A stretch of 64,000 nt of DNA from Ostreococcus lucimarinus (GCA_000092065.1 CP000587.1), one strand, 5' to 3'; shown: positions 7,665 through 56,707, counted from the first letter of the stretch. Made by a program: numbers and translations. The notes: generated from the letters alone by a model not told the origin.

Positions 7665-8153
7665 CTACGAATCGTCATAAAGCGTACGAATCACCGTCAG
7701 TCTCTCGCGTCTCGCGTCGGTCTCGCGCGCGCGCAAAACCCTCTTTGGATACGATCGTCCCGCCCCCGCCCGCGCCCACGCGCGCGCGCACGCCGCGCGC
7801 CGCGCCCCCCGATCGCGCGCGCGATCACCACACAACCCCCGCGCGCCCCCGCGCGCACGCGCGCCCCCCGACGCGCGTCGCCATCGCCCGCGCCCTCCCG
7901 ATGACGCCGCGATCCGATCCGCGTTATCCTCACCAGACCCTACGTCCACGACCGGGCCCGGCCGCGCGTCCCTCGCGCGCGCGCGCGTCGCCCCGCGACG
8001 CCATCTCTCGCGCACTATTTTCCTCCACCGAATCCCGCGCGCGATCATCCTCGCCCGCGCGCGCGTCCTCGCGCGCGGCGCGATAATCCCGATGCCCGTC
8101 CCATCGCGCGCCATCGCGTCGTTCGCGCGTCGCGTCGTTCGTCGTTCACGCAC
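7665..8153 (-). other. ATPC: Intron (489 nt) of ATPC, with donor G|GTGCGT, branch CTGACGG 28 nt upstream of the TAG acceptor
   Basis: Inferred from the frame and from comparing the exon junction (transit peptide MSAVAHTSLAMSKATAVRGASVKRSTAAQRATAPQRSLV | IRNASPKEMRDRIASV) with algal ATPC precursors. Confidence 0.5.
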
Positions 8154-8270
8154 CACGAGGGATCGCTGCGGCGCCGTCGCGCGCTGCGCGGCGGTGGACC
8201 GTTTCACGGACGCACCGCGCACGGCGGTGGCCTTGCTCATGGCGAGCGACGTGTGGGCGACGGCGGACAT
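8154..8270 (-). CDS. ATPC: ATP synthase gamma chain, exon 1 (chloroplast transit peptide, 39 codons)
   Basis: ATG at 8268-8270. The peptide is Ser/Ala/Arg-rich and has no acidic residues. It ends at a GTGCGT donor in phase 0. Confidence 0.55.
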
Positions 8271-8479
8271 CGAGTCGATCGTTCGGCGCGCGCGTGTATG
8301 CGGCCGAGGCGCGCAGATTCGCCCGCCGGATCGCGCGGCTTCGAGGGGTCGCGTGTTCGTGATGGGGATCTCGTGGGATTGTATACGAGGTTTGGTGCGT
8401 GTTTAAATATGGGGAAATGAGGGCGAGTGCGCATTGAAATATGGGGTCGAGGACGACGCGCGCGCGGCGGCGGCTCGGA

Positions 8480-9400
8480 TCACGGCGCGATCGTCAAGGC
8501 GTGGGTGACGATGTCCACCGGACCGCCCGCGGCGAGGAGTACGCTCGCAGCTTGGTCGGCGTCGGGAAATTGCGTCGGATCGCACGGGGCGCCGCGCGCG
8601 TGCAGGGCGTCCCAGGTTTCCTCGCGGCGCTGCGTCTCGCGAACGACGACGACGGCGCCGGTGCGATCGACCTCGGTGAAATCGCAAAAGAATCGAGTCT
8701 CGAACAGGCGAATGAGAACGCCGTCGACGCGGAGCCAAAATCTGAGCAAGACGAACCAACACTTGGGCATGACGCGCACCTTGAGCCCGAGGTGGGCGAC
8801 GCCGTTGTCGTCGAGCTCGGACTCGTACAGCGTCAGCTCGTCGTACATCAGTATCGGATCTCTCTCGGTGAGCATCGCGCGATCAATGCGTCTGTCGGTG
8901 AGCTCCCACGTCGGTGGCTGGCGATTCGAATCGCTCGTCGTCGTCACCGTGCCGCCGTACGGCGTCGTAAACGTCCAGTCGTACTCGGCGCTTCGCTCCG
9001 TCGTATTCCACGACGTCATCGACGGTCCGGGCGGTAACGCGGCGCCGTCCGCGCCGTCCGCACTCGTGCCGACACCTTCCCCGCCTCGCGCGTCCCTCGT
9101 CGCGGCGATCGACGCATCGCCGAACCGCTCGACGTGCGACCGTCGCCACGTCTTCGCCGCCGCGACCTCGATCGCGGGCAACCCGAGCTTCACCCACTCC
9201 CTGAGCGCGTCTTCCGCCTCGAACCTCAGCGCGACGCCGCTCTCGTGTCGCAGTTCGAGCGCGCTGTCGAACAGCATCTCCGGCGTCGTCGGCGCGTCGA
9301 CGTTCGTCTCGACTTGCTCTATTCGCGCTCTTTTCGCGATCGGCGTCGACGCGCTCTCGACGTCCCATCCACCGCGCGCGACGCGCGCGACCGTCGTCAT
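8480..9400 (-). CDS. TIPRL: TIP41-like protein (TOR pathway / PP2A regulator)
   Basis: Contains YDWTFTTPYGG, DPILMYDELTLYESELDDNG and KVRVMPKCWFVLLRFWLRVDGVLIRL, which are characteristic TIP41-family blocks. Confidence 0.75.
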   Translation of the reverse strand: MTTVARVARGGWDVESASTPIAKRARIEQVETNVDAPTTPEMLFDSALELRHESGVALRFEAEDALREWVKLGLPAIEVAAAKTWRRSHVERFGDASIAATRDARGGEGVGTSADGADGAALPPGPSMTSWNTTERSAEYDWTFTTPYGGTVTTTSDSNRQPPTWELTDRRIDRAMLTERDPILMYDELTLYESELDDNGVAHLGLKVRVMPKCWFVLLRFWLRVDGVLIRLFETRFFCDFTEVDRTGAVVVVRETQRREETWDALHARGAPCDPTQFPDADQAASVLLAAGGPVDIVTHALTIAP

Positions 9401-9529
9401 CGCGCGCGCGCGTCGCGGTCGCGCGTCGCCGACGCCCCGCGACGCCTCGCGCGCGCGCGCCGCGCGTCGCGTTCTCGCGTCGTCAGCCAGCGCGAACCGT
9501 CACTCGCGCGCGCGCGACGCGACGACGCG

Positions 9530-11149
9530 ATGACGCGCGTGCGCCGCGCCATGGAGGCGTTCCGCGCGATCGCGGACCCGCTCGAGCGCTACGTCTACCT
9601 GCGCGAGCTCCAGCGCGCGAGCGCGGAGACGTTTTATCGCGCGCTCGTGCGCGAACCGCTCGAGCTCATGCCGTTCGTGTACACGCCCACCGTGGGCGAG
9701 GCGTGCGAGAAGTATCACCGCCTGGGCATCGAGACGAACGGGGTGTACATCACGGCGGACGACGCGGGACGCGTGGGGGCGAAGCTGCGAGGACACTGGG
9801 ATCGGGCGGCGGCGGCGCGCGCGAGGGCGCGCGAGGGGCTCGACGGCGAAGCGGCGAAGCGACGAGGGGTCGATCGTCGCGCGCGCGCCGACGACGGCGT
9901 CGCCGTGGCGGTGGTGACGGATGGAGAACGGATCTTGGGGCTCGGTGATCTCGGCGCGGGCGGAATGGGGATCAGCGAGGGGAAGATTTTGTTGTACACG
10001 GTGTGCGCGGGCGTGCGGCCGTCGGCGTGTTTGCCGGTGTGCCTGGACGTCGGGACGAATAATCAGAGATTGCTGGACGACCCGAATTATAAAGGATTGC
10101 GACGGACGCGGCTGAAGGGGGAGGCGTACGACGCGCTGGTGGACGAGTTCATGCGAGAGATGCGGGCGTGGCAGCCGAGGTGTTTGGTGCAGTTTGAGGA
10201 TTTCGGCAACGCGAACGCGTTTCGTATCTTGGAAAAGTATCGCACGACGGGACCGTGCTTCAACGATGACATTCAAGGCACCGCCGCGATCACGCTCGCG
10301 GCGCTGCTCAGCTCGTTGCGAGCGACGAAAGGGAAACTGGAGGATCAAAAGGTTTTATTTTACGGCGCCGGCGAGGCGGGCGTCGGCATCGGCGAGCTCA
10401 TCGCCATGGCGATGGAGAAGACTGGGATGTCGCACAAGGAAGCCATGGAGCGATGTTACTTCATGGATTCCAAGGGTCTGGTTTGCAAAAGTCGTCTGGA
10501 TGGATTGCAGCCGCACAAGGTGGCGTTCGCGCACGACGTCGAGTATCAGCCCGATTTACTGTCGGCGATTTCCGCCGTCAAGCCCACGGCGTTAATCGGC
10601 GTGAGCACGATCGGCGGGGCGTTTACGGAAGACGTCGTCAAGGAAATGTGCGCTCTGAACGAGCGGCCAATCATTTTTCCGCTGAGCAATCCCACGTCGA
10701 AGTCAGAGTGCACGTTTGAGCAAGCCATGGCTTGGAGCGACGGCAAAGTCGTCTTCGCCAGCGGGTCGCCGTTTGATCCAGTCGTGCGCCCGCGAGATGG
10801 CGTAAAAGTCTTCCCAGCGCAAGCGAACAACGCGTACGTTTTCCCGGCGCTCGGCTTCGCCGCCGCTCTCACGGGGGCGTCGCAAATCACCGACGATTTA
10901 TTCCTCGCCGCCGCCGAATCGCTCGCGTCCATCACAACCGACGCGGAGATCGACGCCGGCCATTTATTCCCGGACATGAACTCCATCAGACAAGTCTCAG
11001 TAACGTTAACCGCGGAGATTTGCGAGATGATTGTGAAATCCGGCCTCGGTCGCGCCCCGAGCGGGGTGTCCACGCACGCGGACTGGTTGGCGTACATCGA
11101 GTCGCACCAATACGACCCGGGCGAGGAGCAACCGATATCCAAGCTCTAA
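9530..11149 (+). CDS. NAD(P)-dependent malic enzyme
   Basis: PLERYVYLRELQRASAETFYRAL, GLGDLGAGGMGISEGK and FNDDIQGTAAITLAALL are canonical malic-enzyme motifs. The start is the internal ATG at 9530; the first 132 codons of the listed ORF overlap the TIP41 gene on the other strand. Confidence 0.85.
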   Translation: MTRVRRAMEAFRAIADPLERYVYLRELQRASAETFYRALVREPLELMPFVYTPTVGEACEKYHRLGIETNGVYITADDAGRVGAKLRGHWDRAAAARARAREGLDGEAAKRRGVDRRARADDGVAVAVVTDGERILGLGDLGAGGMGISEGKILLYTVCAGVRPSACLPVCLDVGTNNQRLLDDPNYKGLRRTRLKGEAYDALVDEFMREMRAWQPRCLVQFEDFGNANAFRILEKYRTTGPCFNDDIQGTAAITLAALLSSLRATKGKLEDQKVLFYGAGEAGVGIGELIAMAMEKTGMSHKEAMERCYFMDSKGLVCKSRLDGLQPHKVAFAHDVEYQPDLLSAISAVKPTALIGVSTIGGAFTEDVVKEMCALNERPIIFPLSNPTSKSECTFEQAMAWSDGKVVFASGSPFDPVVRPRDGVKVFPAQANNAYVFPALGFAAALTGASQITDDLFLAAAESLASITTDAEIDAGHLFPDMNSIRQVSVTLTAEICEMIVKSGLGRAPSGVSTHADWLAYIESHQYDPGEEQPISKL

Positions 11150-11359
11150 GCTTTCGCACGCCGTAGCATCGCCGTCGTAGTAATTCAAATTTATTCGTAT
11201 TGATTATTCGACGACGACCGTCCGTCGCGCGTTTCTCGATTTTCGACCGCCGAGCTCGACGAGACAGTTACGCCGCGGCGTCCCCGCGCCCGCTCGCGCC
11301 CGCACACGCCCGCGCGGCGTCGCGCGGCGTCGCGCCCCGAACTCGCGCGACTCGACGTC

Positions 11360-12709: not shown

Positions 12710-12760
<51 letters not shown>

Positions 12761-16186: not shown

Positions 16187-17722
16187 ATGTCGTCCGCTAA
16201 AAAGAAACCACCGAAAACGACCAATCCCGCGTCGCTCGTCGACGCGCGCGTCGACGCCGTCCTCGCGCGCGTGGCCGCTGTGAAGGCGCGCGCCGTCGCT
16301 CTCGACCACGCGCGCGTCAACGTCGACGATGTCGACGCGCTCGTGTCGGGCCTCGGCGCGCTCGGCCTGCGAGCGAGCGAGGACAAACAGCATCCGATCA
16401 CGCGCGTGCAAACACCGCCGCCGTTGCGGAAGCACGCGCACGCGCGCACGGTGAGCGTCTCGGATGTGGATGTGTCCGCGGTGAAGCTCGAGCGCGACGA
16501 AGCGCCGGCGAAGCGCAAGCGCCGCGTGGGGTTGTTGTACGACGACGCGATGGAAATGCACGAAAAGGAGGGACACTTCGAACAGCCGGCGAGACATCGG
16601 GTCGTCGTGAATGAGATCAAGGCGGAGAAACTGGATTTGAGATGCGAACGGCTGGAGGCGCGAGAGGCGACGGAGGCGGAGCTGACGCGCGCGCACACGA
16701 AGGAACACGTGGCGTTCGTCGATTCGGCGTTCGACGTCGATGGAGAGAAGGTACAAGTTATGACTGGCGAGGACGTGTTCGGCGATGACATCTTCTTCAC
16801 GAAGCATACGGCGAAGGGGGCGCGCATGGCGGCGGGGACGGTCGCGGAGGCGTGTTTGGCGGTGGGGCGAGGAGACGTAGACCGAGCGTTCGCGGTGGTG
16901 CGACCACCGGGACATCACGCGGTGTGCGGACAAGCGATGGGATTTTGTTTCTTCAATAACGCCGTCGTGGGAGCACGAGCGGTGATCGAGACAAAACTGT
17001 GCGAGCGAGTCCTGATAATCGATTGGGACGTGCACCACGGTAACGGCATCCAGGACATCGTGTACGAAGACGAGAGCGTGATGTACGTATCGTTGCATCG
17101 ATACGGCGATGGATTTTACCCGGGCACGGGTGCTGTAGCGGAGGTTGGTAAAGGCGGTACGAATGTGAACGTTGCGTGGTCGGAGAAGGGCTTGGGAGAC
17201 GCCGATTACTTGGCCGCGTTTGACGTCGTCATCGAGCCCGTGGTGAAATCTTTCGCTCCAGATTTGATCATCATCGCCGCTGGATTCGACGCCGCGGACG
17301 GCGATCCACTCGGAGGTATGATGGTATCGCCCACGGGCTACATGCACATGACGAAGCGTTTGATTGAAATCGGTACCGGGCGCGTCGTCGTCGCTCTTGA
17401 AGGTGGTTACGCCCTTCGCCCGCTCGCCACGTGCGCGACGGCGACGCTTCGAGCGTTACTCGGCGATGAACCGAAGCCTATATCATCGCGGTCTCGACCG
17501 AGGAAATCAAGCATCAAGCTCTGTCGCGAGCTCGCGTCGCTGCTCGCAGAGCACTGGCCCGTGCTAGAGAGCGACGAGTACAAGAATTCGACGGCGTTGA
17601 TCGCGAAACGCGCCACCGTCGTCGGCGCCGCGCGAGAGTACCCCACCGGTCGCCGCTCGAAATCGCCCGCAAATTCTTCCTCGTCCGCCTCCACTGCCGT
17701 GGGCGCCGTCTGTACGACTTAA
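16187..17722 (+). CDS. Histone deacetylase, class II (HDA5/HDA15-like)
   Basis: RPPGHHA, CFFNNAVVGA, IIDWDVHHGNGIQD and VSLHRYGDGFYPGTG are present. The start is the internal ATG at 16187 (MSSAKKK); the listed ORF start overlaps the DUF72 gene. Confidence 0.85.
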   Translation: MSSAKKKPPKTTNPASLVDARVDAVLARVAAVKARAVALDHARVNVDDVDALVSGLGALGLRASEDKQHPITRVQTPPPLRKHAHARTVSVSDVDVSAVKLERDEAPAKRKRRVGLLYDDAMEMHEKEGHFEQPARHRVVVNEIKAEKLDLRCERLEAREATEAELTRAHTKEHVAFVDSAFDVDGEKVQVMTGEDVFGDDIFFTKHTAKGARMAAGTVAEACLAVGRGDVDRAFAVVRPPGHHAVCGQAMGFCFFNNAVVGARAVIETKLCERVLIIDWDVHHGNGIQDIVYEDESVMYVSLHRYGDGFYPGTGAVAEVGKGGTNVNVAWSEKGLGDADYLAAFDVVIEPVVKSFAPDLIIIAAGFDAADGDPLGGMMVSPTGYMHMTKRLIEIGTGRVVVALEGGYALRPLATCATATLRALLGDEPKPISSRSRPRKSSIKLCRELASLLAEHWPVLESDEYKNSTALIAKRATVVGAAREYPTGRRSKSPANSSSSASTAVGAVCTT

Positions 17723-17737
17723 TCGATGTAAAAAAGT

Positions 17738-17779
17738 AAAGTAAATCACTGAGACGTGAAAGTAAATCACTGAGACGTG
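17738..17779. repeat. Perfect tandem duplication, 2 x 21 nt (aaagtaaatcactgagacgtg), in the HDAC 3' flank
   Basis: Seen directly in the sequence. Confidence 0.85.
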
Positions 17780-17855
17780 TCGCGTCAGAAAAAACGGCGA
17801 TTTTAATCGGCGTTTTTCGCCACAACTCGGCTCGACTCTCGACTGTCGACTCCCG

Positions 17856-19784
17856 ATGACCATCCGCGGCCGCGCGCGATCGATATGCGTCCTTCTCGCC
17901 GCGCTCGCACTGACGACGAGCGCGTACGCCGCGCCGACCTCAGCGCCGCGCGCGCGCAGCCGCGCGACGCCCGCGCCCGCGACGTCTCGTCCCCGCGATT
18001 CCCCGGACATCGAAACATCGAACATCGACATGAACGACGTCGAGGCGTTTCTCACGCAAGCGCGCGATGAATTCATCGCGACCCGCGCGTCGCGCGGGTC
18101 TTCACACGGCCGCTCGACGACGACGTCTCCGGACGAAGCCGGTTTGGACTGGATCGCGTCGTTCTTCTCGCCTCGGGAACGTCGCCGCGGCTCTGCGGGT
18201 CGCGCGGCGCGTAATCGACGCGACTCGAACTTGCCTCCGGTTGAAGTGGATCAGACCGGCGTTGACTTCTACCTCACCGCGCGCGCGTACGCGCAAGAAC
18301 ACGCGGTGAGCGATCCTCGGGGCGGTCGGATGCGCATCGCTCGCGCAGAGGAACCGAATCAGTTTCAGTGGTGGTACGATTTCATTTGGCAAACGCAACA
18401 ACAAATCATCGCTTGCGAAGGACGAGAATCGTGCGAAGGTCTTTGGCATCAGTTCGGCGCGCAAGGCAGCATTTGTTGTGACGCCGGTGCCGAATTTTAC
18501 GGTCACGCTCACTTTTCGTGCGTCGAAAGTGTCGAACAATGCGAGGCGCTCACCACGTGCGCCTCGTCCGCCGATTGCGGCGTGAATCAAGTGTGTTGCG
18601 CGACGAAGCCGCATTCTGACGATTTGATGTGCGTGACGAGCTTTCAAGACTGCGCGGCGTACTGTCACTCCGATGCGCAGTGTAAAGCGGAGAAAGGCGA
18701 ACAGTGTTGCTACGACGAAGTACTCGGATACACGATTTGTATCCCGGAAGGGCTATCGTGTCCACCGCCCCCGCCAGAGTGCCCGACCACGGGACAGCCG
18801 ACGTGCCGCTCGGACTCCGAGCGCACGTGTTGCGGTGGCGTCTGTTGTCCGCCGGATGAAAACGGTGTTGAATGGTTGTGTTGCAGAATCTGTGACGAAA
18901 ATGTTTGCTACCGAGCTACCCCCTCTCTGGGGGACGGAAGCTACGAGTGTCCGGACCCATTTTGCCCGCGGCCTCCAGAGTGTTCGTCGCAAGCAGAGTT
19001 GAGTCAGTGCACGGATCCGGTGAACCCGATCGTCGCCGCGCAATCTGCGCGCAATGGCGATCCTCCGACCGGTAGCATTTGCTGCGGTGGTGTGTGCTGT
19101 GAGATCGGGGACCCCGATCTGGTGCCCATCGGCACATTCGGCCCGAACTTTTGCTGCTACGATTTCCCGGACGGTCCTTCTGGTTGGAGTTGCCAACCAG
19201 GCATCCCTGGTGACCCGCTTCCGACTCCCCCGCCCGGTTGCGCGCGACAACCTCCCAGCGCTCAGTGTCCGGCCGGTTCTGAGTATTTGGATACGTGCGT
19301 TGCTGACGATCAGTCTATTGGCGTGTGCTGTGGACCGGAAGTTGACGGCGGCGGGCTGACATGCTGCCCTGATGAATCCGTGTGTTGCGCCAACGTCGTG
19401 GACGGAGCGACCGTCGGTTACGAATGCAAAGCCCAGAATGAGTGCCAAGAGGGTGAGTTATGCAGGATACTCGGTGACTGTCCGAACTCTCAGCAATACT
19501 CGGTCTGTGGTTCGTGCGGACAGGGCAATAATGACTGCGCGCTGTCCTGCCAAGCGGGCGCAGGTGAGCCTCCGAACGACCCTTCGTGGATTTGTTCCAC
19601 CGTCGATGGTTGCGACCCAGTCGCCGACTACAACAACGGCCCGAGCGATGCCACGTGCGTGTGTAATAACGGAGCGTGCGGCGGCGCGACTCAATGTAAG
19701 ACAGGAGGGAATTGCTGCGCGTGCCAAGCTCGTGGCCCGCGCGGTGGCGTGCAATGCGACAACCCACCAACCGTATTGGTTTGA
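17856..19784 (+). CDS. Secreted cysteine-rich protein with CC-doublet modules (granulin-like spacing; CCGGVCC motif appears twice)
   Basis: Signal peptide MTIRGRARSICVLLAALALTTSAYA. There are more than 80 Cys residues and repeated CC doublets: ICC, VCC, QCC, TCCGGVCC, LCC, ICCGGVCC, FCC, VCC, TCC, NCC. Confidence 0.7.
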   Translation: MTIRGRARSICVLLAALALTTSAYAAPTSAPRARSRATPAPATSRPRDSPDIETSNIDMNDVEAFLTQARDEFIATRASRGSSHGRSTTTSPDEAGLDWIASFFSPRERRRGSAGRAARNRRDSNLPPVEVDQTGVDFYLTARAYAQEHAVSDPRGGRMRIARAEEPNQFQWWYDFIWQTQQQIIACEGRESCEGLWHQFGAQGSICCDAGAEFYGHAHFSCVESVEQCEALTTCASSADCGVNQVCCATKPHSDDLMCVTSFQDCAAYCHSDAQCKAEKGEQCCYDEVLGYTICIPEGLSCPPPPPECPTTGQPTCRSDSERTCCGGVCCPPDENGVEWLCCRICDENVCYRATPSLGDGSYECPDPFCPRPPECSSQAELSQCTDPVNPIVAAQSARNGDPPTGSICCGGVCCEIGDPDLVPIGTFGPNFCCYDFPDGPSGWSCQPGIPGDPLPTPPPGCARQPPSAQCPAGSEYLDTCVADDQSIGVCCGPEVDGGGLTCCPDESVCCANVVDGATVGYECKAQNECQEGELCRILGDCPNSQQYSVCGSCGQGNNDCALSCQAGAGEPPNDPSWICSTVDGCDPVADYNNGPSDATCVCNNGACGGATQCKTGGNCCACQARGPRGGVQCDNPPTVLV

Positions 19785-24317: not shown

Positions 24318-24348
<31 letters not shown>

Positions 24349-25822: not shown

Positions 25823-26347
25823 CTACTTAGTCGCTAATTCGGCCTCGAGATCCGCGATCGCGCCTTCGATCGCCGCGCATTTCCGCGTCGTCGCGTACCA
25901 CTCGCGCTCGAGCGCGGAAATTTCCTTCGCCGCGCTCTCTTGCTGCAACTTCCGCATCACGTTCAGCTCGTTCACCTCCGTGCGTACGCGCGCCAGCTCC
26001 TCCTCGTACGCCTTCACCGCCGCGTCTCCCCACGCGTTCCTCGCCCGCCACGCCGCCGGCGCGTACTTCAGCGCCAGCTCCAAATTCGCGCGTCTCGTCG
26101 CCTGATGTTCCAACTGCGCGCGCGCGTTTTCGATCGCCTTCTCCCACGCCTCCGCGCTCTCGCGCTCGCTCCGCGGCGGCGGATCGAGCCTGTACCGCAT
26201 CGTGTCCGGAATCACCATCGATCTCCCGCTCGCGACGCGCGCGAGTTCATCCGCGACCATCCTTCCCGCGCGTCGCTCCAGCCCGTCGTCGCCGCTCGGC
26301 GCCAGCGCGTCGAGGCGATCCCTCCCCCTGCTCTTCATCCGTCGCAT
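25823..26347 (-). CDS. BCAS2: Pre-mRNA splicing factor SPF27/BCAS2 homolog
   Basis: DALAPSGDD...AWEKAIENARAQLEHQATRRANLELALKYAPAAW aligns with BCAS2 (DALPY...QLEHQ..R..NLEL). Only the C-terminal 174 codons of the listed 522-aa ORF are taken as real; the rest is GC artefact. Confidence 0.6.
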   Translation of the reverse strand: MRRMKSRGRDRLDALAPSGDDGLERRAGRMVADELARVASGRSMVIPDTMRYRLDPPPRSERESAEAWEKAIENARAQLEHQATRRANLELALKYAPAAWRARNAWGDAAVKAYEEELARVRTEVNELNVMRKLQQESAAKEISALEREWYATTRKCAAIEGAIADLEAELATK

Positions 26348-26645
26348 CTGCGCCCGCGTTCGCGCCGTCAGTCCCTCGATCGCGCGGCGTTCGCATCGCG
26401 TCGCCGCGCACCTCCTCGGCGACGGCTTGGTCGACGCGCGCGCGCCAGTCTCCTCCCGGCGTCGCGTCGACGTACGGCAGCGCGTCCGCGGCCGCGCCCG
26501 ATGCCGTCCACTCGCGCCGCGCGACGCCCTCGAGCGCCGACGCCGGGAGCGCCGGGACGTCGCGCGCGTCGTCGCGCGGCATCGTCGCGGCGCGGCGCGT
26601 CGAGCGGGCGCGCGCGCGTCGGTCGGCGCCACTCGGCGGCGCGGA

Positions 26646-29018: not shown

Positions 29019-29633
29019 TTACCACTCGAAATCCGCCGCGGGGTTGTCGCCAGAGTCGGAGTCGGAGTCATCCAAGAACAAGCCCTTGTCGCGCAAGTAG
29101 TTGATGGCCGCCGTCAAAGCATTGTCCTTGAACTTCAAGTAGTACTTGCCGTTGTCGGTGTCTTCGGAGATGCTCGCCGTCGCCCACGTCGCCGTGGAAC
29201 TTTCCGCCGGCGCGCCACCGACGCCACCACCGAGATCGGTATCGCACACCGCCTTCATCCATTCAGTGGCGTTCAACTTGTCCTTCAACGGTTCCGCGAC
29301 GTACGCGACCATGGCGATCTTATTCGTCTGGTCGTTGTGTCCGATGATGAGCTTCGAGATGTGCCCCGAGCAGCCCTTACGCTCTTCCTCGTTCGCCGGA
29401 TCCGGAATCGCGTTCATCCCCTCCATGGAGACTTCAAGCAATTCGACCGAATCACCGGCTTCGGTCATTCGCGTGCAAAAGCACGTGAGCCCGGACATGT
29501 CCGCCGCGCCCTCGATCTCCACGCCCTTCTTCCCGCCCTCCTTCAAGCACTTCGCGATCTTCTTCTCCGCGATTCCCGCCGCCTTCGCGGCGTCGCACTT
29601 CGGCCATTCCTGCGTCCGCGATCGATCCATCAC
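29019..29633 (-). CDS. Hypothetical acidic-tailed protein (204 aa)
   Basis: Clean ORF with K/E/D-rich, non-GC-artefact composition. It ends in the acidic tail DDSDSDSGDNPAADFEW. Family not recognised. Confidence 0.5.
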   Translation of the reverse strand: MMDRSRTQEWPKCDAAKAAGIAEKKIAKCLKEGGKKGVEIEGAADMSGLTCFCTRMTEAGDSVELLEVSMEGMNAIPDPANEEERKGCSGHISKLIIGHNDQTNKIAMVAYVAEPLKDKLNATEWMKAVCDTDLGGGVGGAPAESSTATWATASISEDTDNGKYYLKFKDNALTAAINYLRDKGLFLDDSDSDSGDNPAADFEW

Positions 29634-30515
29634 CGATCGTCAGTCCTCCGTCGTCGCTCGTCGCGCCTCTCGTCGCGCCGATCCGCGATCGCGCCGATCG
29701 CCGCGGCATCCTTCCGCTAGGTCGTCCGTCATCATTAATCATCTCGCGTTCGCTCGCGTCTCCCGTCGCGTCGTCGTCCCTCGCGCGTCGCCGACGATCG
29801 TCGATTTGGTTTCGCGCGTCGTCGCGTCGCGTCGTCGCGCACCGTGGTGAAAGACATCGTCGTCGTCGTCGAGTTCTGGCGCGATCGGTCGAGCCGCCGC
29901 CGCCGCGCGCGCGCGCGAAACCCTAACGTCGCGATCGGATTTATGCGATGCGCGCCATTTAGTTCTAAATGGACGTTGTATACGGAGACGCCAGAACGCG
30001 ACGCGCGATGGGCGCGCGCGACGCCGACGCGGCGTGCGCGCTGCGCGACGACGAGGGTGCGCGCGCGCGTCGAGCGCGCGTCGCGCGCGGCGCGATGATT
30101 CGACGCGTGGGACCGCGCGCCGGTGCATCGAAGACGACGATGACGACCACGACGATGATGAACGACTTTTTGCTGGACGACGACGCGAGGACGACGCGAC
30201 GACGACGCGAGGACTGACGACTCGACGACGATCGCGACGCGCAGTGTCGAACGCGCTGTTCGAGCTCACCGCCCTGGCCGGGCTGGACGTGCGACGGGAG
30301 GTGCACGACGCGGTGCTGGAGCTGTCGCGCGCGCGCGTGGTGCCGACGGCGACGGCGCAGGTGCTTCGCTCGCTCGCGAGCAAGGCGGCGGACGCGCGCG
30401 CGGCTGGACTCGAGGACGCGTTGCGCGCGCCCGCGCGCGAGTAGGCGCGACGCCGTGGTGGCGTGAGTGTGTTTGTATTCGTAACGCGCGCGTCACAGCG
30501 CGCCTCGAGCTCGAC

Positions 30516-32495: not shown

Positions 32496-33376
32496 TCACG
32501 AGGACTTCTTTTTAGACACTCTATAAGCACCCACGACCATGGCATGGTCGCGTTCGTACGGCTCCAAAGTGAGCTGCTCGGCAGGCTTGAAGCCTTCAGT
32601 TTGTAGCTTCTTCACCTCTCGCGCGAACACCGCCTCCGGCGCGGCGGTGGAGTCGATGCACGACGCCTTGATGGAGATCATAAAGTTACCACCTTGCTTC
32701 AAAAAGTATTGCGCGTTCAAACCAACGATGCGAGCTTGATCCGGCTGCGCCACGTCGGCGAAGATAGTGTCAACCATACCGATCAACATGCGGTACTTTT
32801 GCGGGTGACGCGCGTCCTCGATGATCGGAATGACGTTGGTGCGCTTCTTCGCCATGTTGACCAAGTCGCGCCCAGAGCGGTGAGAAAACTCAACGGCGTA
32901 CACCGTGCCTTCGGGCCCGACCAAGTCGGAGCAATGCGACACCGTCGTACCCGAAGCACCGCCGAGATACAAGAGCTTTGAGCCGGGCTTGATGTGAATG
33001 GCGTCCAAACCGCCGAGAATACCCGCCGCAATTTTCGATCTAAACGGGTTCCACACGCGGTACTCCGTCTTCGTACCGTCCGCCTCGTCGACTGAAATAC
33101 GCTTCTCACCGTACACGCTCTCGCCGACGACCATGTTCCGCGTCACGAGCGCATCTTCCTTCCCGCGAGCGACGAAGACGCCCTCGTGACGATGCTTTTC
33201 GACGACCACCTTCGACCCGCCCTTCATACCGCCGCGTCCACCACCGCGTCCGCCACCGCGTCCACCACCGCGTCCACCGCGTCCACCACCGCGTCCGCCA
33301 CCGCGTCCGCCGCCGCGTCCGCCGTCGCGTCCGCCTCGTCCGCCTCGTCCGCCGCCTCGTCCGCCCGGCGAGAACC
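32496..33376 (-). CDS. FIB: Fibrillarin (rRNA 2'-O-methyltransferase), exon 2: GAR domain plus methyltransferase core
   Basis: The RGG-repeat GAR domain is in frame upstream of [31 protein letters not shown], and the canonical fibrillarin core follows. No Met lies between the upstream stop and the GAR domain, so a 5' micro-exon is needed. Confidence 0.9.
33228..33365. repeat. FIB: RGG/GGR codon repeat encoding the fibrillarin GAR domain
   Basis: (gcgtccaccacc)n-like periodicity seen directly. Confidence 0.85.
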
Positions 33377-33655
33377 CTGCAATTCACCCAAAAAACGAAT
33401 TCTCCCCGTCAGTCCCTCGTTCGCGTCCCGTCGCGTCGCCGACGCGCGTGGACGATGGCGTCGATATTTATGTCTTCGATCGCGACCACCTCGCGTCGAC
33501 GCGCGACGTCGCATCGCGCGCGTTCTCGCGTTTTCTCGAATCCGCCGCAATCGATCGTCCCGGCGGCGGTCGTCGATTGGCGCGTAATTCCCGTCGACGC
33601 GACGTCGCGTTCGCGCGCGCGCGCGATCGATGACGCGCGAGTGAAAGTGACGCAC
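33377..33655 (-). other. FIB: Intron (279 nt) of the fibrillarin gene
   Basis: Donor GGAG|GTGCGT. Branch ACTGACGG lies 29 nt upstream of the acceptor ttttttgggtgaattgcag|GG. The intron is in phase 1. Confidence 0.6.
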
Positions 33656-33680
33656 CTCCTCGGCCGCCGCCTCGTCCCAT
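33656..33680 (-). CDS. FIB: Fibrillarin exon 1 (micro-exon, 8 codons + 1 nt: MGRGGGRG-G)
   Basis: The sequence ATGGGACGAGGCGGCGGCCGAGGAG is immediately followed by GTGCGT. Joined with exon 2 it gives [17 protein letters not shown]..., like the MRPGFSPRGG N-termini of other fibrillarins. Confidence 0.6.
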
Positions 33681-33935
33681 GGGTGCGCGCATGGTTACCG
33701 TACGCGCGCGTGTGTGCGGCGCGCGCGGCTCGGCGCCTTTTAGTTGTGCGCGCCGCAGTGTCGAGTCGTGAACCGTCGAGAGTCCCCGAGCGAGGAAACA
33801 AACCACCGAGCGACGCGCGAGGACGCGCCGACGCGCGATGAAGGCGATGAATTAATGCGTATGAATTAATGATGCGCGTCGACCGCGCGCGCGACGGACG
33901 CGCGCGCGCGTCGTCGCCGATCTCGATTGAACTAT

Positions 33936-41351: not shown

Positions 41352-41702
41352 ATGTCCGACCCGCATAAAGCCGTAACTTTTGCCGTGTGGACCCTCGCCC
41401 TGGCAATGACTCACATCTTTTTCCAGCGCAGGCACGCACCCGACAAAGATAAGACTCGTCCGCGCACGCGAACGCAAACCGCAAAGCTTGAGGAGGAGGA
41501 GAGTCGCGCTCGGGACGCGCAGATGCAACAGGTGCTAGACAGCTGGACGTGCCAGCACTGTCAACACGAGAACCGGAGCCTGCGGAGCACGCGCGCGCGA
41601 CGAAGCACTTTGGAATGTTCGAACTGTCGGAACGATTTCATCTTTTGCGTCTCGCCGCGCAAGAGCGCGCACAAGGCTCTGTTGGATGAACGCCCGGTGC
41701 AG
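41352..41702 (+). CDS. Zinc-ribbon + PARP-like ADP-ribosyltransferase protein, exon 1 (hydrophobic segment and W-x-C-x2-C...C-x2-C zinc ribbon)
   Basis: ATG at 41352. The peptide contains WTCQHCQHEN...ECSNC. The exon ends at CAG|GTGCGC in phase 0. Confidence 0.5.
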
Positions 41703-41772
41703 GTGCGCGAGACGAGAAACGGCGACGAGAAACGCGAGACTGACCGGGACGCGCGGGACGATCGATGCACAG
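41703..41772 (+). other. Intron (70 nt) joining two overlapping out-of-frame ORFs
   Basis: Donor CAG|GTGCGC. Branch ACTGACCGG lies 27 nt upstream of the acceptor cacag|TGC. The length is 70 nt, which is 1 mod 3 and exactly explains the frame shift between ORF 41244..41801 and ORF 41686..42252. Confidence 0.5.
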
Positions 41773-42252
41773 TGCCGCGCGCCGTATCGAGTGGGGAATG
41801 ATACGCTGTCGCCACATTTTACCGTGAAATTGAACGAATTCTCTCTGCCTGGAACGTCATTGTACGAACGATTTTACAAGAATGTGAAGAACGCCGATCC
41901 GCAATCCATTCGGCTCGCCTTCCATGGAACATCGTTCGCGGCGGCGAAGCTGATACTGAAAAACGGTATGAGTCCATCACGACGAATCAACACACAAGGC
42001 GACTGGTTTACACTGGACATCAACTATGCGCTCACGAGAAGTATCTGTCGTGAGGACCACAGCGCGCAATGGGGTGGTACACCCAAGGACGAAGAGCCAG
42101 ACGCGTACTCGAAGAGCGTTGTGGTGATCTGCTTCGCCGTCTACATGCCAAAAACGATCTACATCGGGGAACACATCGTCTGCACATGCGAGAAACATAG
42201 TCTTCCGATCTCAATGCTCGAGTTTCCGCGAGAGCCTTACGATCCCGCGTAA
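41773..42252 (+). CDS. Zinc-ribbon + PARP-like ADP-ribosyltransferase protein, exon 2 (catalytic-like domain)
   Basis: AFHGTSFAAAKLILKNGMSPS ... GDWFTLDINYAL ... KSVVVICFAVYMPKTIYIGEHIVCT aligns block-for-block with mono-ART PARP catalytic cores (FHGT / HGF / G-x-aromatic-F / Y / E). Confidence 0.55.
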   Translation, partial: CRAPYRVGNDTLSPHFTVKLNEFSLPGTSLYERFYKNVKNADPQSIRLAFHGTSFAAAKLILKNGMSPSRRINTQGDWFTLDINYALTRSICREDHSAQWGGTPKDEEPDAYSKSVVVICFAVYMPKTIYIGEHIVCTCEKHSLPISMLEFPREPYDPA

Positions 42253-52733: not shown

Positions 52734-52780
52734 ACTTGAATAGTTTACGTAGATTATTACATAAAGTCGACAGCGATAAC

Positions 52781-53512
52781 TCACACCTTCTTCGCCTTGG
52801 CACCGCCGAACAACTTTTTCACCGTGCGCACAATCATCATTATGATGCGCCAACCCCACATCACGGACACGACGAAGATGCCAAGAGCGCCCGCCTTGAC
52901 GATGTACGTGTTCGAGTCGTTCACGACCGTTCGCCATACCAACGGCGGACCGACGATGAGTCGGCAAAGCAAGAACAACAGCGCAAACAACAAGTCATTC
53001 AACGTCGCCAGGAGACTATCCTTCATGTTCAATTCGCGCAACATGGAGCGCAAGTGCAAGCTCGGATTGCTCACCTCCATCAAAAACAAGCACCCGACCA
53101 GTTCGGGGCCACTGCGCCCGGTGATGACTCCGCTCGCGAGCCCGCCGACGGTGAACATGTGATGGACCACATTCTCCACCTCGTTATTCAACAGGCAATA
53201 AAAGAAGTCGTACACGAAATAACCCAGCGACAGCGTCATGCACTCCAAGTGCGCCATCGTGTTCGCTCCGCCTACGTTCTCCAACAGCGCCCCCCACGTC
53301 GGCAGGCATCGCGCGCACATGTAAATGGCCACGACGGCGTGAATGAAGCTCACAGTGCGATTGGAAAAGTCGGCTGTGCGTCGGCGCAGGACGCCGAAGC
53401 GCAGGAAGACGTAGAGTAGCGTCCACCCGACGCTCTGCGGGACAACCTTTTGCAGCGAAGGAATGGCGACGCGGAGGTACTCCAAGTCGAGCGACGGCGA
53501 CTTACTAACCAT
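52781..53512 (-). CDS. TLC (TRAM/LAG1/CLN8) domain membrane protein
   Basis: Six hydrophobic helices. HHMFTVGG...MEVSNPSLHLRSML matches TLC-domain blocks. Confidence 0.65.
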   Translation of the reverse strand: MVSKSPSLDLEYLRVAIPSLQKVVPQSVGWTLLYVFLRFGVLRRRTADFSNRTVSFIHAVVAIYMCARCLPTWGALLENVGGANTMAHLECMTLSLGYFVYDFFYCLLNNEVENVVHHMFTVGGLASGVITGRSGPELVGCLFLMEVSNPSLHLRSMLRELNMKDSLLATLNDLLFALLFLLCRLIVGPPLVWRTVVNDSNTYIVKAGALGIFVVSVMWGWRIIMMIVRTVKKLFGGAKAKKV

Positions 53513-53709
53513 AATGACGTCGTTGATGATGTTCTTCGCGTATCAGGACGCGATAATGCGGCCTAGCGCGGTGAGCGATGCGCTGTGACGGCGGACATGG
53601 CGAAGGTTAAATCTATTGAGCGAGGAGACGCGCGAGCCAAGAGCGCGCACGGCGGCCAATGGCGAGTCTATGCGGTTTAGCGGCCAATCTATGCATTGAT
53701 ATTCTATAT

Positions 53710-53982
53710 CTAAAACCAAAAGTTGATGCTTATCGACGGCGTGAGTGCGCGGACGTAGTGCCAGCATTTTGCCGGGATGTAAACAAAGTCGCCCGGTCCG
53801 ACTATAACTTCGTACGCCGTAGCTAAGCTAAATTCAGGGAAGCGATCGAGGTCGGGGTGTTCCACGTCCACAGCGGAGAAGTTCCCTTGCGAATGTCTCG
53901 TCGTGGATTTAGACGCGGTCGTGCGGTACATGTAAGGCGTATCCGACTCGAGAAATAGTCTTATCAACTTGTATCCCGCAAC
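53710..53982 (-). CDS. JmjC-domain protein, exon 2 (C-terminal part of the JmjC fold)
   Basis: VAGYKLIRLF...VDVEHPDLDRFPEF...PGDFVYIPAKCWHYVRALTPSISINFWF. The track's 'M' at 54000 is actually a GTG codon, not an ATG. This exon starts at the acceptor tttttgtgcttgcag|GTT. Confidence 0.7.
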   Translation of the reverse strand, partial: VAGYKLIRLFLESDTPYMYRTTASKSTTRHSQGNFSAVDVEHPDLDRFPEFSLATAYEVIVGPGDFVYIPAKCWHYVRALTPSISINFWF

Positions 53983-54211
53983 CTGCAAGCACAAAAACAC
54001 GCGAAGTGAGTCGACGGCGGCGGCGGGGTTGGCGAATACGAATGTAGGGCGCTGTGTAGGCCGACGCTCATAACTTTGATACGCCGGTTCTATTGGCGCT
54101 CGCGTTTATGTAGGGAGTCGGTATCACCGGGCTGCCATGACTTTCACAGACCGGCTTCTATTAGACTCCCGCAACGAAAGTGGACAAAAATACGAGTTGC
54201 TCAAAGCGCAC
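53983..54211 (-). other. Intron (229 nt) of the JmjC gene
   Basis: Donor GGTCAG|GTGCGC immediately after the FGQ codons. The acceptor has a pyrimidine tract plus CAG. Both exons are in phase 0. The joined sequence reads HFDTYDNLFGQ|VAGYKLIRLF, restoring the conserved JmjC motif. Confidence 0.65.
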
Positions 54212-55234
54212 CTGACCAAATAAATTGTCGTACGTGTCGAAATGACACGGTGTGATCGTTCCCGCGGTACCCATCCAGACGTAGACCCGTTCGAAGCTAG
54301 GGGCGCAATTTCCAGCGCTGACATATTCTGGAACCGCGTAGTCTTCCGCCAACTCGCGAAGCTGATCAACCAGTTGATGCTGCGCCAAGTACGCAACATC
54401 ACCTGTGCTCGCGCCCCTCACCGAAGGCAACATGTCCTCATCGATAAAGTCTGCGATTGTTTTCACCTGTTCTCTCCAGTTTTCAACGTCGCTGTACTTG
54501 CCTATTTCTAACGGTACGCTGCGGTGACCGTGGACGAATCGCCACCATTCCAAGTCGGCCCATTTGCGCAGCGCCGGCCATTCCTCACCGAGCGATTCGA
54601 TGAAGACCGGTATCTCGGTCTTATAATAGCGCTGCTTAAACGTTTTCAAGTCCATTTCGCGATGATGCACTCGCGCGAGCCTCGTCTGCGCGGCATGATC
54701 GCCTCGGTCGCCTTTCGGCGCCGCGCTCGGGAACAACCACTCGCTCGTCGACGCGCTTCGCGCGTGCCCGGCGCTCACCTCACGGCGTCCGTCCATCCCC
54801 AACGCCCGCTCGCACGCGCGCACGAAATCAACCACCATATCCACGGGCGCACCCACGATCAAGGCCATGTCCACCGCCAGCATCGCCTCCCGCGCGCTCT
54901 CCGCTCGCGTCTCGCCGTCGCCGTCCCGGTCCCGCAGCGCCGCCGCGCACCGTCGAAGCTGCGCCAGGACGTACGCATCTCGCCAGCTCTCCCGCGGCCA
55001 CGCGCCGCGCGCTTGCAGCGCCGCGTACGTCGCGTCGACGACGCGCTCTCGAGCCTTCTTCGCGTCGTCGTCGTCATCCGCGCTCGACGACTTTGTCAAG
55101 ACGAGGTCGAGCCAACGCGCGAGTTTTTCTTCGCCGTGCGCCGCGATGTCCGCCACCGCGTCGCCTCCGAACGCGCGCGCGAACTCGTCGGTCACGCGCG
55201 CGTCTAACGCGTCGACGTCGGCGCTCGGAGCCAT
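54212..55234 (-). CDS. JmjC-domain protein, exon 1
   Basis: Start MAPSADVD at 55234. The JmjC N-terminal blocks WWRFVHGHRSVPLEIG and GTAGTITPCHFDTYDNLFGQ are present. Confidence 0.7.
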
Positions 55235-55295
55235 GCGAGCGCGCGCGAGGGTGAGGAAACGCGCAGAGTTGGTTGGTTTGGTTGTTGCACGCGCG

Positions 55296-55952
55296 CTACG
55301 ACTGCCACAGCCGCTTCAACTCGCGTCCGGCTCGGCATTTCTCCACCGCGCTCAGCGCGATGCGCAAGACTTCGTCCTGAATCACGTCCGGTTCGCGATT
55401 GGCGTCGATCACGTCCCACCAATCTTCTCGCATCGCTTCGAAACTCGCCTTGACGGCGCGTTGCATCTCCGTCGTCTCGTATCGCTCCTCGCCGAAGCCG
55501 CCGCGCTTCGCCGCGTCCTCGAGCGATAACTCTAAATACATCAACGCGTCCGGACGCGGTAATCCGACTTCAGGGGCGCGACACCACTCTAAATCCAATC
55601 CATCCACCCCCTTCGCCGCCGTAAACGCGCACCCGCTGTACGAGTACCTATCGCACACCAACGTCACGCCGCTCGCGAGCTTGCGTTCCATGAGCGCCTT
55701 CTTCTCCCATCGATTCGCCGCGAACAGCAGGTGTATCGCCCCATCCTCCATCTCGCTCTTCGACCGCAAGTACTGATCGATCATCTTCCCCATCGCCGTC
55801 GCGCGATCGGGGTACCGCCACAGCTCCGCCTCGACCCCCCGCGCCTCGAGCGTGTGCACCAACCGCATCGCTTGCGTCGACTTCCCGCATCGATCCGCGC
55901 CTTCGAACAGCACGAACGCGCCTCGCGCGGCCACTTTTCCCGCGGCGGACAT
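55296..55952 (-). CDS. Thymidylate kinase (dTMP kinase)
   Basis: P-loop FVLFEGADRCGKSTQ, DRY-like block LVCDRYSYSG, and lid region. The start is the internal ATG at 55950-55952 (MSAAGK). A possible N-terminal extension would start at 56090. Confidence 0.8.
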   Translation of the reverse strand: MSAAGKVAARGAFVLFEGADRCGKSTQAMRLVHTLEARGVEAELWRYPDRATAMGKMIDQYLRSKSEMEDGAIHLLFAANRWEKKALMERKLASGVTLVCDRYSYSGCAFTAAKGVDGLDLEWCRAPEVGLPRPDALMYLELSLEDAAKRGGFGEERYETTEMQRAVKASFEAMREDWWDVIDANREPDVIQDEVLRIALSAVEKCRAGRELKRLWQS

Positions 55953-56226
55953 CGTCGCGAGCGCGCCCGCACGCGCGGCGTCTCGCCGCGGCGCGTCGCG
56001 GTGCGTCGCGCGTCGTCGCGGTGCGTCGCGCGTTTCAAACGCGCGCGCGGCGACCGACCGCGTGTGACGCCGAATGTCCGAATTCTCCATCCCGGGATAT
56101 GGCGCGCAGTCTGGTTTATCCAGATCGCGCGCGCCGAAAACCCTAGTGATGTCGGCTGACTGTTTGCGCACACGACGCGCCGACCCCGCGGGGCACGCGC
56201 GCGCGCGCGCCACACCGCGCCGCGTC

Positions 56227-56334
56227 ATGTTTACGATCTCCGCGTCCTCCACCGCCGCGCGACCGACCGTGGTCGCGCACCGTCGCGCGAATAAGACGCG
56301 CGCGAAGCGTTCCGTCGTCGTGCACGGCGCCAAG
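56227..56334 (+). CDS. ATPD: ATP synthase delta chain (OSCP), chloroplastic, exon 1 (transit peptide, 36 codons)
   Basis: MFTISASSTAARPTVVAHRRANKTRAKRSVVVHGAK resembles algal ATPD transit peptides (..RRTVVVMARK..). It ends at AAG|GTGCGC in phase 0. Confidence 0.6.
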
Positions 56335-56707
56335 GTGCGCGAACGCGCGAGCGCGCGACGCGCGCGCGCGACGCGAACGCGCGCGCGAGTAATCGCGAGG
56401 GGCGCGATCGGGCGTGTTATCCTCGACGACGACGGCGTCGGACGAGGCGCGAACGCGATGAAGAGGACCGCGAACGCGCGTGGGAGTTTTGTTGCGTCGC
56501 GCGCGCGCGTCGCGGCGCGCGCGCGGGCGTCGACGGGGGGACGGCGGACGGGACGAGGCGACGGCGATCGCGCGGGGCGTATCCTCGAGGGGTTTGGCGC
56601 GCGCGCGCGCGGCGCGGACGAATCCGACGTTTGACGCGGTGTGGGTGGACGTGCGTTTGACGAGAACGGTAGACTGACGGATGATTGATCGTTTTCGCGC
56701 GTTGCAG
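56335..56707 (+). other. ATPD: Intron (373 nt) of ATPD
   Basis: Donor GTGCGC. Branch ACTGACGG lies about 30 nt upstream of the acceptor gttttcgcgcgttgcag|TCC. Exon 2 has a TGA stop immediately upstream in frame, so an upstream exon is required. Confidence 0.6.

Follow-up and report, generated by a model that had tools for sequence, protein, structure and literature searches.

At least eight introns interrupt the genes of the window, a 64-kb stretch of nuclear DNA from Ostreococcus lucimarinus CCE9901, all very probably ordinary spliceosomal introns of U2 type with GT-AG ends, of the canonical class that O. lucimarinus and other Mamiellales have outside the outlier chromosome. Their rigid grammar, G/GTGCGY … GACTGACG … YAG (the slash marks the exon/intron boundary), was reported as this species' standard intron signature as early as 2008, so the finding is correct but ordinary. 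In that study, Irimia and Roy (2008, PLoS Genet, PMC2483917) described O. lucimarinus introns outside chromosome 2 by the signals GTGCGTG, GACTGACG and CGCAG. The donor GTGCGTG carried 4.8 bits; of 319 EST-confirmed introns outside chromosome 2, 87% contained ACTGAC and 66.5% contained GACTGACG; and the branch-to-AG distance was 20-35 nt with a preference for CGCAG (PMC2483917). The same donor and branch signals were later extended to Micromonas, as AG/GTGCGT and NCTGAC (Verhelst 2013, PMC3879977). As a discovery the present analysis therefore adds little, the donor, the branch, the 20-35 nt spacing and the link with intron poverty having all been published in 2008.

Syntenic with O. tauri chromosome 7, the window has a GC content of about 0.61 and is dense in mostly single-exon genes, about 8 of about 41 carrying an intron; these features, together with a record of 783,246 bp, place it outside the outlier chromosome. 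The gene inventory was based on Pfam matches, because codon-usage scoring of ORFs was only roughly informative in the window, where antisense ORFs stay open in the GC-rich DNA. All eight introns (Table 1) have GT…AG boundaries and the donor G/GTGCGY, as GTGCGC in six and GTGCGT in two. Seven possess the branch motif GACTGAC(G/C), the JmjC intron has ACTCAC, and the acceptor is YAG, often CGCAG.

The original prediction comprised five of these introns (ATPC, fibrillarin, PARP-like, JmjC and ATPD), which were all recovered at their predicted positions with the G/GTGCG(T/C) donor and YAG acceptor, but five was an undercount, as at least three more, in SPF27/BCAS2, an unnamed gene and MOZART2, obey the same grammar. 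The branch elements were also as described, CTGAC(G/C)G in four introns being part of ACTGAC(G/C)G and the CTCAC of JmjC part of ACTCAC, 24 nt from the intron end. The predicted spacing of 27-30 nt was essentially right, although it depends on where counting starts, and becomes 29-32 nt in those four introns when measured, as here, from the branch adenosine, assigned from the motif, to the last intron base. The lengths of the five (70-489 nt) were confirmed, and all eight span 64-489 nt; the GC content of the five is 0.55-0.74, the JmjC intron, at 0.55, being below the window mean. Three of the five (ATPC, fibrillarin and ATPD) lie within the first 40 codons, and the reading of an unusually rigid, non-GTRAGT grammar with a 5' bias in an intron-poor, GC-rich genome is upheld. 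U12-type introns have a (A/G)TATCCTT donor and a TCCTTAAC branch located 10-15 nt from the 3' splice site, and both motifs are absent from the donor and branch sequences of the eight introns.

Table 1. Introns of the window and two associated features. Exon-terminal letters are in lower case; the last column is the distance from the putative branch A to the intron end.
Feature	Coordinates	Strand	Size	Position or basis	Signals	Branch A distance (nt)
ATPC intron	7665..8153	-	489 nt	phase 0, after codon 39	gtg/GTGCGTGA … GAGACTGACGG … TAG	32
SPF27/BCAS2 intron	26348..26411	-	64 nt	after codon 57	gag/GTGCGCGG … GGGACTGACGG … GCGCAG	20
MSFTT-gene intron	29610..29842	-	233 nt	after 5-codon micro-exon (MSFTT/EWPK…)	acg/GTGCGCGA … AGGACTGACGA … CGCAG	30
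MOZART2 gene	30008..30444	+	82 aa	ATG at 30008, stop ends at 30444		
MOZART2 intron	30057..30244	+	188 nt	phase 1, after codon 16	agg/GTGCGCGC … AGGACTGACGA … CGCAG	27
Fibrillarin intron	33377..33655	-	279 nt	phase 1, after codon 12, after micro-exon MRAPMGRGGGRG	gag/GTGCGTCA … GGGACTGACGG … TTGCAG	32
PARP-like gene intron	41703..41772	+	70 nt	phase 0, after codon 117	cag/GTGCGCGA … GAGACTGACCG … CACAG	29
JmjC intron	53983..54211	-	229 nt	after codon 341	cag/GTGCGCTT … CGACTCACTT (variant ACTCAC) … TTGCAG	24
H/ACA box small RNA, Ot-HAsno65 ortholog	54039..54173	-		inside JmjC intron; Rfam, conservation, host-gene position		
ATPD intron	56335..56707	+	373 nt	phase 0, after codon 36	aag/GTGCGCGA … TAGACTGACGG … TTGCAG	30

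Exact removal of the intron was seen at three loci in environmental contigs from public assemblies, whose RNA origin we infer from the missing intron. For ATPC, the gene of the chloroplast ATP synthase gamma subunit, eight contigs join 8154 to 7664; the spliced protein is identical to XP_001418858.1 (O. lucimarinus CCE9901) and has an unbroken Pfam ATP-synt match, and the unspliced reading contains in-frame stop(s). For ATPD (chloroplast ATP synthase delta/OSCP), where the intron causes a frame jump, one contig joins 56334 to 56708, and the spliced protein is identical to XP_001418641.1 of the same strain. The O. tauri ATPD ortholog has GTGCGT…AGACTGACGA, also with a 30-nt spacing. The junction of the JmjC (cupin_8) gene, whose intron likewise causes a frame jump, is spliced in four contigs and aligns without gaps against six homologs; ACTCAC and its distance are conserved in the JmjC introns of O. 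tauri and of a further lineage (L012). The transcript check suggested for the five predicted junctions was thus positive for these three; for the fibrillarin and PARP-like introns, the support comes from gene structures in orthologs.

At the fibrillarin, PARP-like, SPF27, MSFTT-gene and MOZART2 junctions, removal is predicted from comparison of sequences. No transcript contig was found for the fibrillarin junction. The unspliced fibrillarin gene has in-frame stop(s), the start of the O. tauri protein (18 residues, given under ostta07g01200 in the PMC7671301 supplement) matches the spliced model, and in the relative L013 this micro-exon recurs, with GTGCGC…ACTGACGG…CAG after it. The fifth predicted intron, in a zinc-finger gene with a weak resemblance to PARP (Pfam E=0.17), causes a frame jump but is not strictly forced as the prediction had it, because an unspliced ORF of 188 aa starting with ATG (41686-42252) is also possible; this ORF is the one reported by prokaryote-style gene callers. 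In the syntenic relative L010, a 69-nt insert with GTATGC…GGACTGACCG…CAG occupies the same position, with conserved coding sequence on both sides. A search of metagenome contigs with the spliced PARP-like 20-mer returned 12 matches, all in unrelated GC-rich contigs, and no spliced transcript.

The three additional introns were identified by similar comparisons. Splicing of SPF27 gives one continuous Pfam BCAS2 match (profile positions 3-197 of 206) that spans the junction, and an environmental strain (L032) has a 1-nt deletion within the intron. The gene of a conserved unnamed protein of 201 aa, here called the MSFTT gene, has an exon 2 ORF without an upstream ATG, and L013 contains an intron with GTGCGT at the same …TT/E(F or W)P position. 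Exon 2 of MOZART2 has no Met and matches the Pfam MOZART2 profile just above the cutoff (23.4 versus 23.3 bits); the ATG lies in exon 1, whose …RDDE can be aligned with …SPDE of the L013 ortholog, which has no intron. The spliced fibrillarin, PARP-like, SPF27 and MSFTT models had no exact match in the protein collection. The contigs L032 (SPF27) and L033-L034 (DUF6823 region with the MOZART2 intron) are colinear with the genome and retain the intron sequence, and are therefore uninformative on splicing there.

The way in which these signals are recognized can be partly described from standard splicing. U1 would base-pair with donor positions -1, +1, +2 and +5 and form a G·U wobble at +3, the GUAGUA of U2 would pair with ACUG-C leaving the A bulged, and the first suitable downstream YAG would serve as the acceptor. 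The comparison was made with the snRNAs of the sister species O. tauri, in which U1 starts with AUACUUACCUG and U2 contains GUGUAGUAUCUG, both with canonical pairing regions; no snRNA gene was found in the window. With these RNAs, Watson-Crick pairing is impossible for the C at donor position +4, for the C often present at +6 and for the G's on either side of the branch motif, and a survey of Mamiellales U1 genes reported no compensatory change (preprint 10.1101/2022.06.08.495308). Because the O. tauri U1 and U2 are canonical, snRNA pairing leaves the unusual positions unexplained. Since they cannot pair, the atypical conserved positions would most likely be read by protein factors or, alternatively, be kept by selection for efficient, unambiguous splicing where spliceosome activity is limiting. 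Examples of readers for the +4 C, the +6 C and the flanking G's may be U1C/Luc7-type proteins at the 5' splice site and SF1/SF3b at the branch.

The JmjC intron hosts a predicted small RNA. In H/ACA RNAs, an H box (ANANNA) separates two hairpins that have internal pockets, and an ACA is located 3 nt from the 3' end. The JmjC-intron RNA is strongly conserved in three lineages, and its consensus fold over these has two hairpins, an ACAUAA H box and four compensatory pairs, and its ACA box is followed by 3-4 nt up to the 3' end. The Rfam SCARNA4 match is full-length (25.1 bits, E=0.005), below the gathering score of 60. With Rfam gathering thresholds the whole window gave no match, and the ATPC, ATPD, fibrillarin, MSFTT and MOZART2 introns, when scanned by E-value, had only matches at chance level. 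The fold of the whole JmjC intron is not unusually stable (z = -1.25), the signal being located in the conserved H/ACA core and not in the intron as a whole. Bousquet et al. (2020, PMC7671301) listed Ot-HAsno65 as intronic in ostta07g01330, the JmjC gene of O. tauri, detected it by RNA-seq at about 82 TPM in mncRNA libraries, and predicted U43 and U39 of the U2 snRNA as its targets, which are quoted here as published for O. tauri.

The predicted U2 pseudouridylation by the hosted guide adjoins the U2 branch-pairing region. As the weaker ACUCAC is kept in three Ostreococcus lineages in an intron that hosts a U2 guide, JmjC splicing, and hence the output of the guide RNA, could be coupled to the modification state of U2. 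Support for this idea and for the reading of non-pairing positions by splicing proteins consists entirely of the coincidence of conserved features, and the joint proposal, in which lineage-specific changes in these proteins combine with the JmjC coupling, is unlikely.

The original prediction also envisaged introner-like repeat families. On such a reading, the shared signals would reflect common descent of recently multiplied mobile introns and not convergent constraint. Introner elements are indeed known in the related Micromonas, where the short IE-C class has the GACTGACG branch motif (PMC3879977), and CG-rich stretches are common to the ATPC, ATPD and MOZART2 introns. However, all-against-all BLAST of the eight introns produced matches of at most 55 nt that are multiply offset, on both strands and of low complexity, with none colinear, and comparison with the rest of the window found only short CG-rich low-complexity matches, so that introner copies are unsupported in the window. 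The wide spread of lengths also opposes such an origin, as does the ATPD intron, whose interior is only about 48% identical to that of O. tauri while the signals persist (one pair measured). Furthermore, five introns have a counterpart at the same position in other Ostreococcus and are therefore old: O. tauri shares those of ATPD and JmjC, and environmental relatives share those of fibrillarin, PARP-like and MSFTT. For the introns of the window, recent multiplication is highly improbable.

It is just as improbable that the motifs merely reflect the GC-rich background and that some introns are wrong gene models, i.e., pseudogenes, frameshifts or translated insertions. Single motifs do occur at background frequency, with 39 GGTGCGY observed against 38.3±6.0 expected in the window and 8 GACTGACS against 5.5±2.4; moreover, the PARP-like gene has its alternative unspliced ORF, and the PARP-like and SPF27 inserts of relatives are multiples of 3 nt without stops. 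In contrast, the composite grammar, defined as G/GTGCGY, 25-600 nt, GACTGAC(G/C) and a YAG 18-36 nt past the branch A, was found seven times against 0.20±0.45 expected (maximum 2 in 200 first-order Markov simulations), an enrichment of about 35-fold, each occurrence coinciding precisely with a frame break or with the absent start of a conserved protein. The three junctions seen spliced also speak against wrong models. In addition, the PARP-like insert is 70 nt in one lineage and 69 nt in another, and the SPF27 insert 64 and 63 nt, a 1-nt change that only non-coding sequence tolerates.

Several other candidates were rejected. The stretches 1292-1675(+) and 2019-2342(+), of which the second but not the first has the extended branch, are chance pattern matches antisense to the HPAT gene and without an exon-terminal G. 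A further chance match, 17431-17943(+), would as an intron interrupt the HDAC domain and join two genes into one. The possibility of an intron lacking the motifs was also weighed for a low-complexity in-frame stretch of the malic-enzyme gene (about 9780-9890); neither a donor nor a branch signal is present there, and the stretch was retained as a coding insertion.

Finally, co-evolved snRNAs or a second dedicated spliceosome, apart from that of the weak-signal outlier-chromosome introns, would be a most unlikely reader of this grammar: this possibility was raised by Irimia and Roy because the introns of chromosome 2 and the others differ sharply within one genome (PMC2483917), whereas U1 and U2, as detected by experiment in O. 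tauri, carry the canonical sequences for pairing with the 5' splice site and the branch, and five Mamiellales have single standard U1 candidates (10.1101/2022.06.08.495308).

With the introns taken as canonical U2-type, the value of the result is in annotation. The proposed use of the grammar as an intron finder works in the window: all seven composite matches in the 64 kb are real or likely introns, with no false positives, and they include seven of the eight known ones. The GenBank gene models omit or truncate three of the eight introns, those of fibrillarin, SPF27 and, probably, MOZART2. The fibrillarin model (XP_001418865, 243 aa) is without the micro-exon and the GAR domain, which are thereby gained, the SPF27 model (XP_001418862) is truncated to 145 aa and regains its first exon, and an intron is flagged in the small MOZART2 gene.

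The window can be compared with several known systems. The H/ACA RNA corresponds in both position and sequence to its O. tauri ortholog Ot-HAsno65, with which it shares the host gene and the architecture of two hairpins, H box and ACA box (PMC7671301); Ot-HAsno65 was detected as RNA, whereas the O. lucimarinus counterpart is known from its sequence. The introns of hemiascomycete yeasts (GUAUGU … UACUAAC … YAG) are likewise few and 5'-biased, with near-invariant donor and branch; the motifs differ, with GUGCGY for GUAUGU and ACUGAC for UACUAAC, and the unusual positions of the window introns give no better pairing with U1 or U2. The introns of the outlier chromosome (chromosome 2, "BOC") belong to the same genome and to the same GT-AG spliceosomal type. 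Their length is 40-65 nt (PMC2367439), with two window introns (64 and 70 nt) in or near this range, but their donors are weak (GTRNGT) and they lack a clear branch motif (PMC2483917), whereas all the window introns have strong canonical signals. The canonical introns of Micromonas share the AG/GTGCGT donor and NCTGAC branch, so that the grammar is common across Mamiellophyceae, with the branch 43-52 nt from the acceptor instead of 20-32 nt; Micromonas also has introner elements, of which the window gives no sign (PMC3879977). The O. lucimarinus introns outside chromosome 2 have an identical grammar, with GTGCG(T)G, GACTGACG, a spacing of 20-35 nt and CGCAG in an intron-poor setting, and nothing differs substantially, the published consensus being GTGCGT where the majority in the window is GTGCGC (PMC2483917).

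The original prediction placed five introns in the window, in the genes for ATPC, fibrillarin, a PARP-like protein, a JmjC protein and ATPD, and ascribed to them one rigid set of splicing signals. All five indeed start as G|GTGCG(T/C) and end in YAG, and four carry ACTGAC(G/C)G as the branch site, with ACTCAC in JmjC; the last intron base lies 32 nt from the branch A in ATPC and fibrillarin, 29 nt in the PARP-like gene, 24 nt in JmjC and 30 nt in ATPD. Their lengths (70-489 nt) and the location of three of the five inside the first 40 codons are also as described, and their GC content ranges from 0.55 to 0.74, in a window of about 0.61. The count, however, was too low. Listing all ACTGAC and ACTCAC in the window, together with a scan for the composite grammar (G|GTGCGY donor, 25-600 nt, GACTGAC[GC] branch, and YAG 18-36 nt after the branch A), adds introns in SPF27/BCAS2, MOZART2 and the MSFTT gene, named for its first five codons, giving eight, five of which lie in the first 40 codons. 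Three looser grammar matches were rejected on context.

Introns and related features (window coordinates)
Feature	Position	Strand	Remarks
ATPC intron	7665-8153	-	
SPF27/BCAS2 intron	26348-26411	-	64 nt; gene 25826-26590 (-)
MSFTT gene intron	29610-29842	-	233 nt; gene 29022-29857 (-)
MOZART2 intron	30057-30244	+	188 nt; gene 30008-30444 (+), 82 aa
Fibrillarin gene	32499-33692	-	
Fibrillarin intron	33377-33655	-	
PARP-like intron	41703-41772	+	
JmjC intron	53983-54211	-	
H/ACA box small RNA	54039-54173	-	centre of JmjC intron, highly conserved
ATPD intron	56335-56707	+	

Taken singly, the motifs occur at background level (GGTGCGY, 39 observed versus 38.3 expected; GACTGACS, 8 versus 5.5), so a scan for donors only would be useless. 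The composite was found seven times where 0.20±0.45 would be expected, and never more than twice in any of 200 simulations; all seven matches are introns and only JmjC is missed, so that within the window the proposed intron finder performs as claimed.

Once spliced, ATPC and ATPD encode proteins identical in every residue to XP_001418858.1 and XP_001418641.1 from O. lucimarinus CCE9901, which lie on a 783,246-bp record. For ATPC, the 365-aa protein is encoded uninterrupted on eight short, independent contigs, which align to the window in two blocks, the first ending at 8154 and the second resuming at 7664. Likewise, contig L009 joins 56334 to 56708 in ATPD, and four contigs, reached via a 431-aa cluster member, join 54212 to 53982 in JmjC, where the junction DNLFGQ|VAGYK aligns without gaps to six homologs. 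Because these contigs lack the introns, match the exons at 99.4-100% identity and frequently span adjacent genes, they are taken to be transcript assemblies. Positions 1-301 of L009 do not align to the window, and with them the called ORF reaches 234 aa; the assembly may be chimeric, or the 5' end an alternative one. TIP41 and ATPC share a strand on single intron-less contigs (L001-L005), as do thymidylate kinase, JmjC and a TLC-domain gene on L016-L019, which span two or three neighbours; such contigs point to transcripts that overlap or read through, or to assemblies joined over very short intergenic spacers.

The introns were said to be forced by in-frame stops or frame jumps. For the PARP-like gene, a tentative label backed by a Pfam match at E=0.17, this is not strictly so, as an unspliced 188-aa ATG ORF is present, but the intron is supported by L010, a syntenic relative at about 62% protein identity, which conserves the upstream zinc-finger exon and has at the same codon a 69-nt insert, cag|GTATGC…GGACTGACCG…CAG. 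The change from 70 to 69 nt is of a kind tolerable in non-coding sequence. A scan of metagenome contigs with the spliced-junction 20-mer found no transcript. The spliced fibrillarin N-terminus, MRAPMGRGGGRG|GFSPGG, is that of O. tauri ostta07g01200 (supplement, PMC7671301), and L013, a more distant relative, has an identical micro-exon followed by GTGCGC…ACTGACGG…CAG. The GenBank model XP_001418865 (243 aa) consists of exon 2 only, starting at an internal Met, and thus lacks the micro-exon and the whole glycine-arginine-rich (GAR) domain. The L013 fibrillarin region contains two introns, of which the second has GTACGT as its donor and CCTGAC as its branch.

Splicing of SPF27/BCAS2, a splicing-factor gene, restores a complete protein with one Pfam BCAS2 match that crosses the junction and covers profile positions 3-197 of 206; the intron is 63 nt in the environmental strain contig L032 owing to a 1-nt deletion, and the GenBank model XP_001418862 is truncated to 145 aa, without the first exon and the intron. 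The MSFTT gene encodes a conserved 201-aa protein without a Pfam family, and its intron follows a five-codon micro-exon (MSFTT|EWPK…), a position common to L013, where the sole CTGAC lies 72 nt from the acceptor versus 30 in O. lucimarinus. MOZART2 is a gamma-tubulin ring complex protein, recognized here at 23.4 bits against a Pfam cutoff of 23.3. Its intron is not in the 5'UTR but joins a 16-codon first coding exon to a Met-less gene body. The L013 ortholog (8056-8286, minus strand) aligns over the junction and is intronless, indicating that the intron was gained or lost between Ostreococcus lineages. In the malic enzyme ORF at 9038-11146 (+), an in-frame alanine/arginine-rich insertion (9780-9890) divides the Pfam malic N-terminal domain in two; no splice signals were found there, so it is probably a low-complexity coding insert.

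Introner-like families had been proposed, with intron alignment as a check. BLAST of the eight introns all-against-all, and of each against the window, returned only short, multiply offset, CG-rich matches on both strands, so the proposal finds no support in this window. Five of the eight introns have a counterpart at the same position in one or more further lineages: O. tauri for ATPD and JmjC, environmental relatives for fibrillarin, PARP-like and MSFTT. Orthologous introns mostly keep the signals, the GTATGC donor of L010 and the distant CGCTGAC of L013 being among the variants, and in the ATPD intron the O. lucimarinus interior matches that of O. tauri at only about 48% identity. At the scale of the window, the pattern looks like constraint on signals and not like copies of one element.

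The JmjC intron has the lowest GC of the window's introns and the sole ACTCAC, which, with its 24-25 nt spacing, is also kept in the related contig L012 and in O. tauri. The small RNA within it matches Rfam SCARNA4 over its full length below threshold (25 bits, E=0.005) and takes up a two-hairpin fold with ACAUAA as the hinge and a terminal ACA box; four pairs are compensatory across three lineages. In O. tauri its ortholog is Ot-HAsno65, an H/ACA RNA of 137 nt that was detected in the JmjC gene intron (ostta07g01330) and whose predicted targets are U43 and U39 of U2 snRNA (PMC7671301). Rfam scans of the ATPC, ATPD, fibrillarin, MSFTT and MOZART2 introns found no RNA-family signal.

A 2022 preprint found the U1 pairing regions of five Mamiellales to be standard (10.1101/2022.06.08.495308); O. 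tauri U1 starts AUACUUACCUG and U2 includes GUGUAGUAUCUG. By standard rules, G|GUGCGU would pair with U1 at -1, +1, +2, +5 and +6, with a wobble at +3 and a mismatch at +4, and the six GUGCGC donors of the window would add a mismatch at +6. ACUG[A]C would pair with U2 GUAGU with one G·U, and of the G's flanking the branch in GACUGACG one would face A (mismatch) and the other U (wobble). Complementarity to snRNAs thus does not explain the most distinctive conserved positions, for which reading by proteins, or selection when spliceosome activity is limiting (as Irimia and Roy proposed), would be the candidates left.

The intron grammar is a correct rediscovery of a kind already known. From 319 introns of O. 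lucimarinus confirmed by ESTs and located outside chromosome 2, Irimia and Roy reported in 2008 an atypical GTGCGTG donor (4.8 bits), ACTGAC at a frequency of 87% and GACTGACG at 66.5%, branch-to-AG distances peaking at 20-35 nt and a preference for CGCAG, and discussed convergence with other intron-poor eukaryotes (PMC2483917). Canonical Micromonas introns have AG|GTGCGT and NCTGAC (Verhelst et al. 2013, PMC3879977). The observation is confirmed, and its interpretation is supported except for the introner proposal and the number of introns; the remaining value of these introns lies in annotation, not concept. O. tauri chromosome 7 is colinear with the window, where about 41 genes occupy 64 kb, the majority single-exon with complete Pfam domains; eight introns among them come near the published share of intron-bearing genes, 16-20%.
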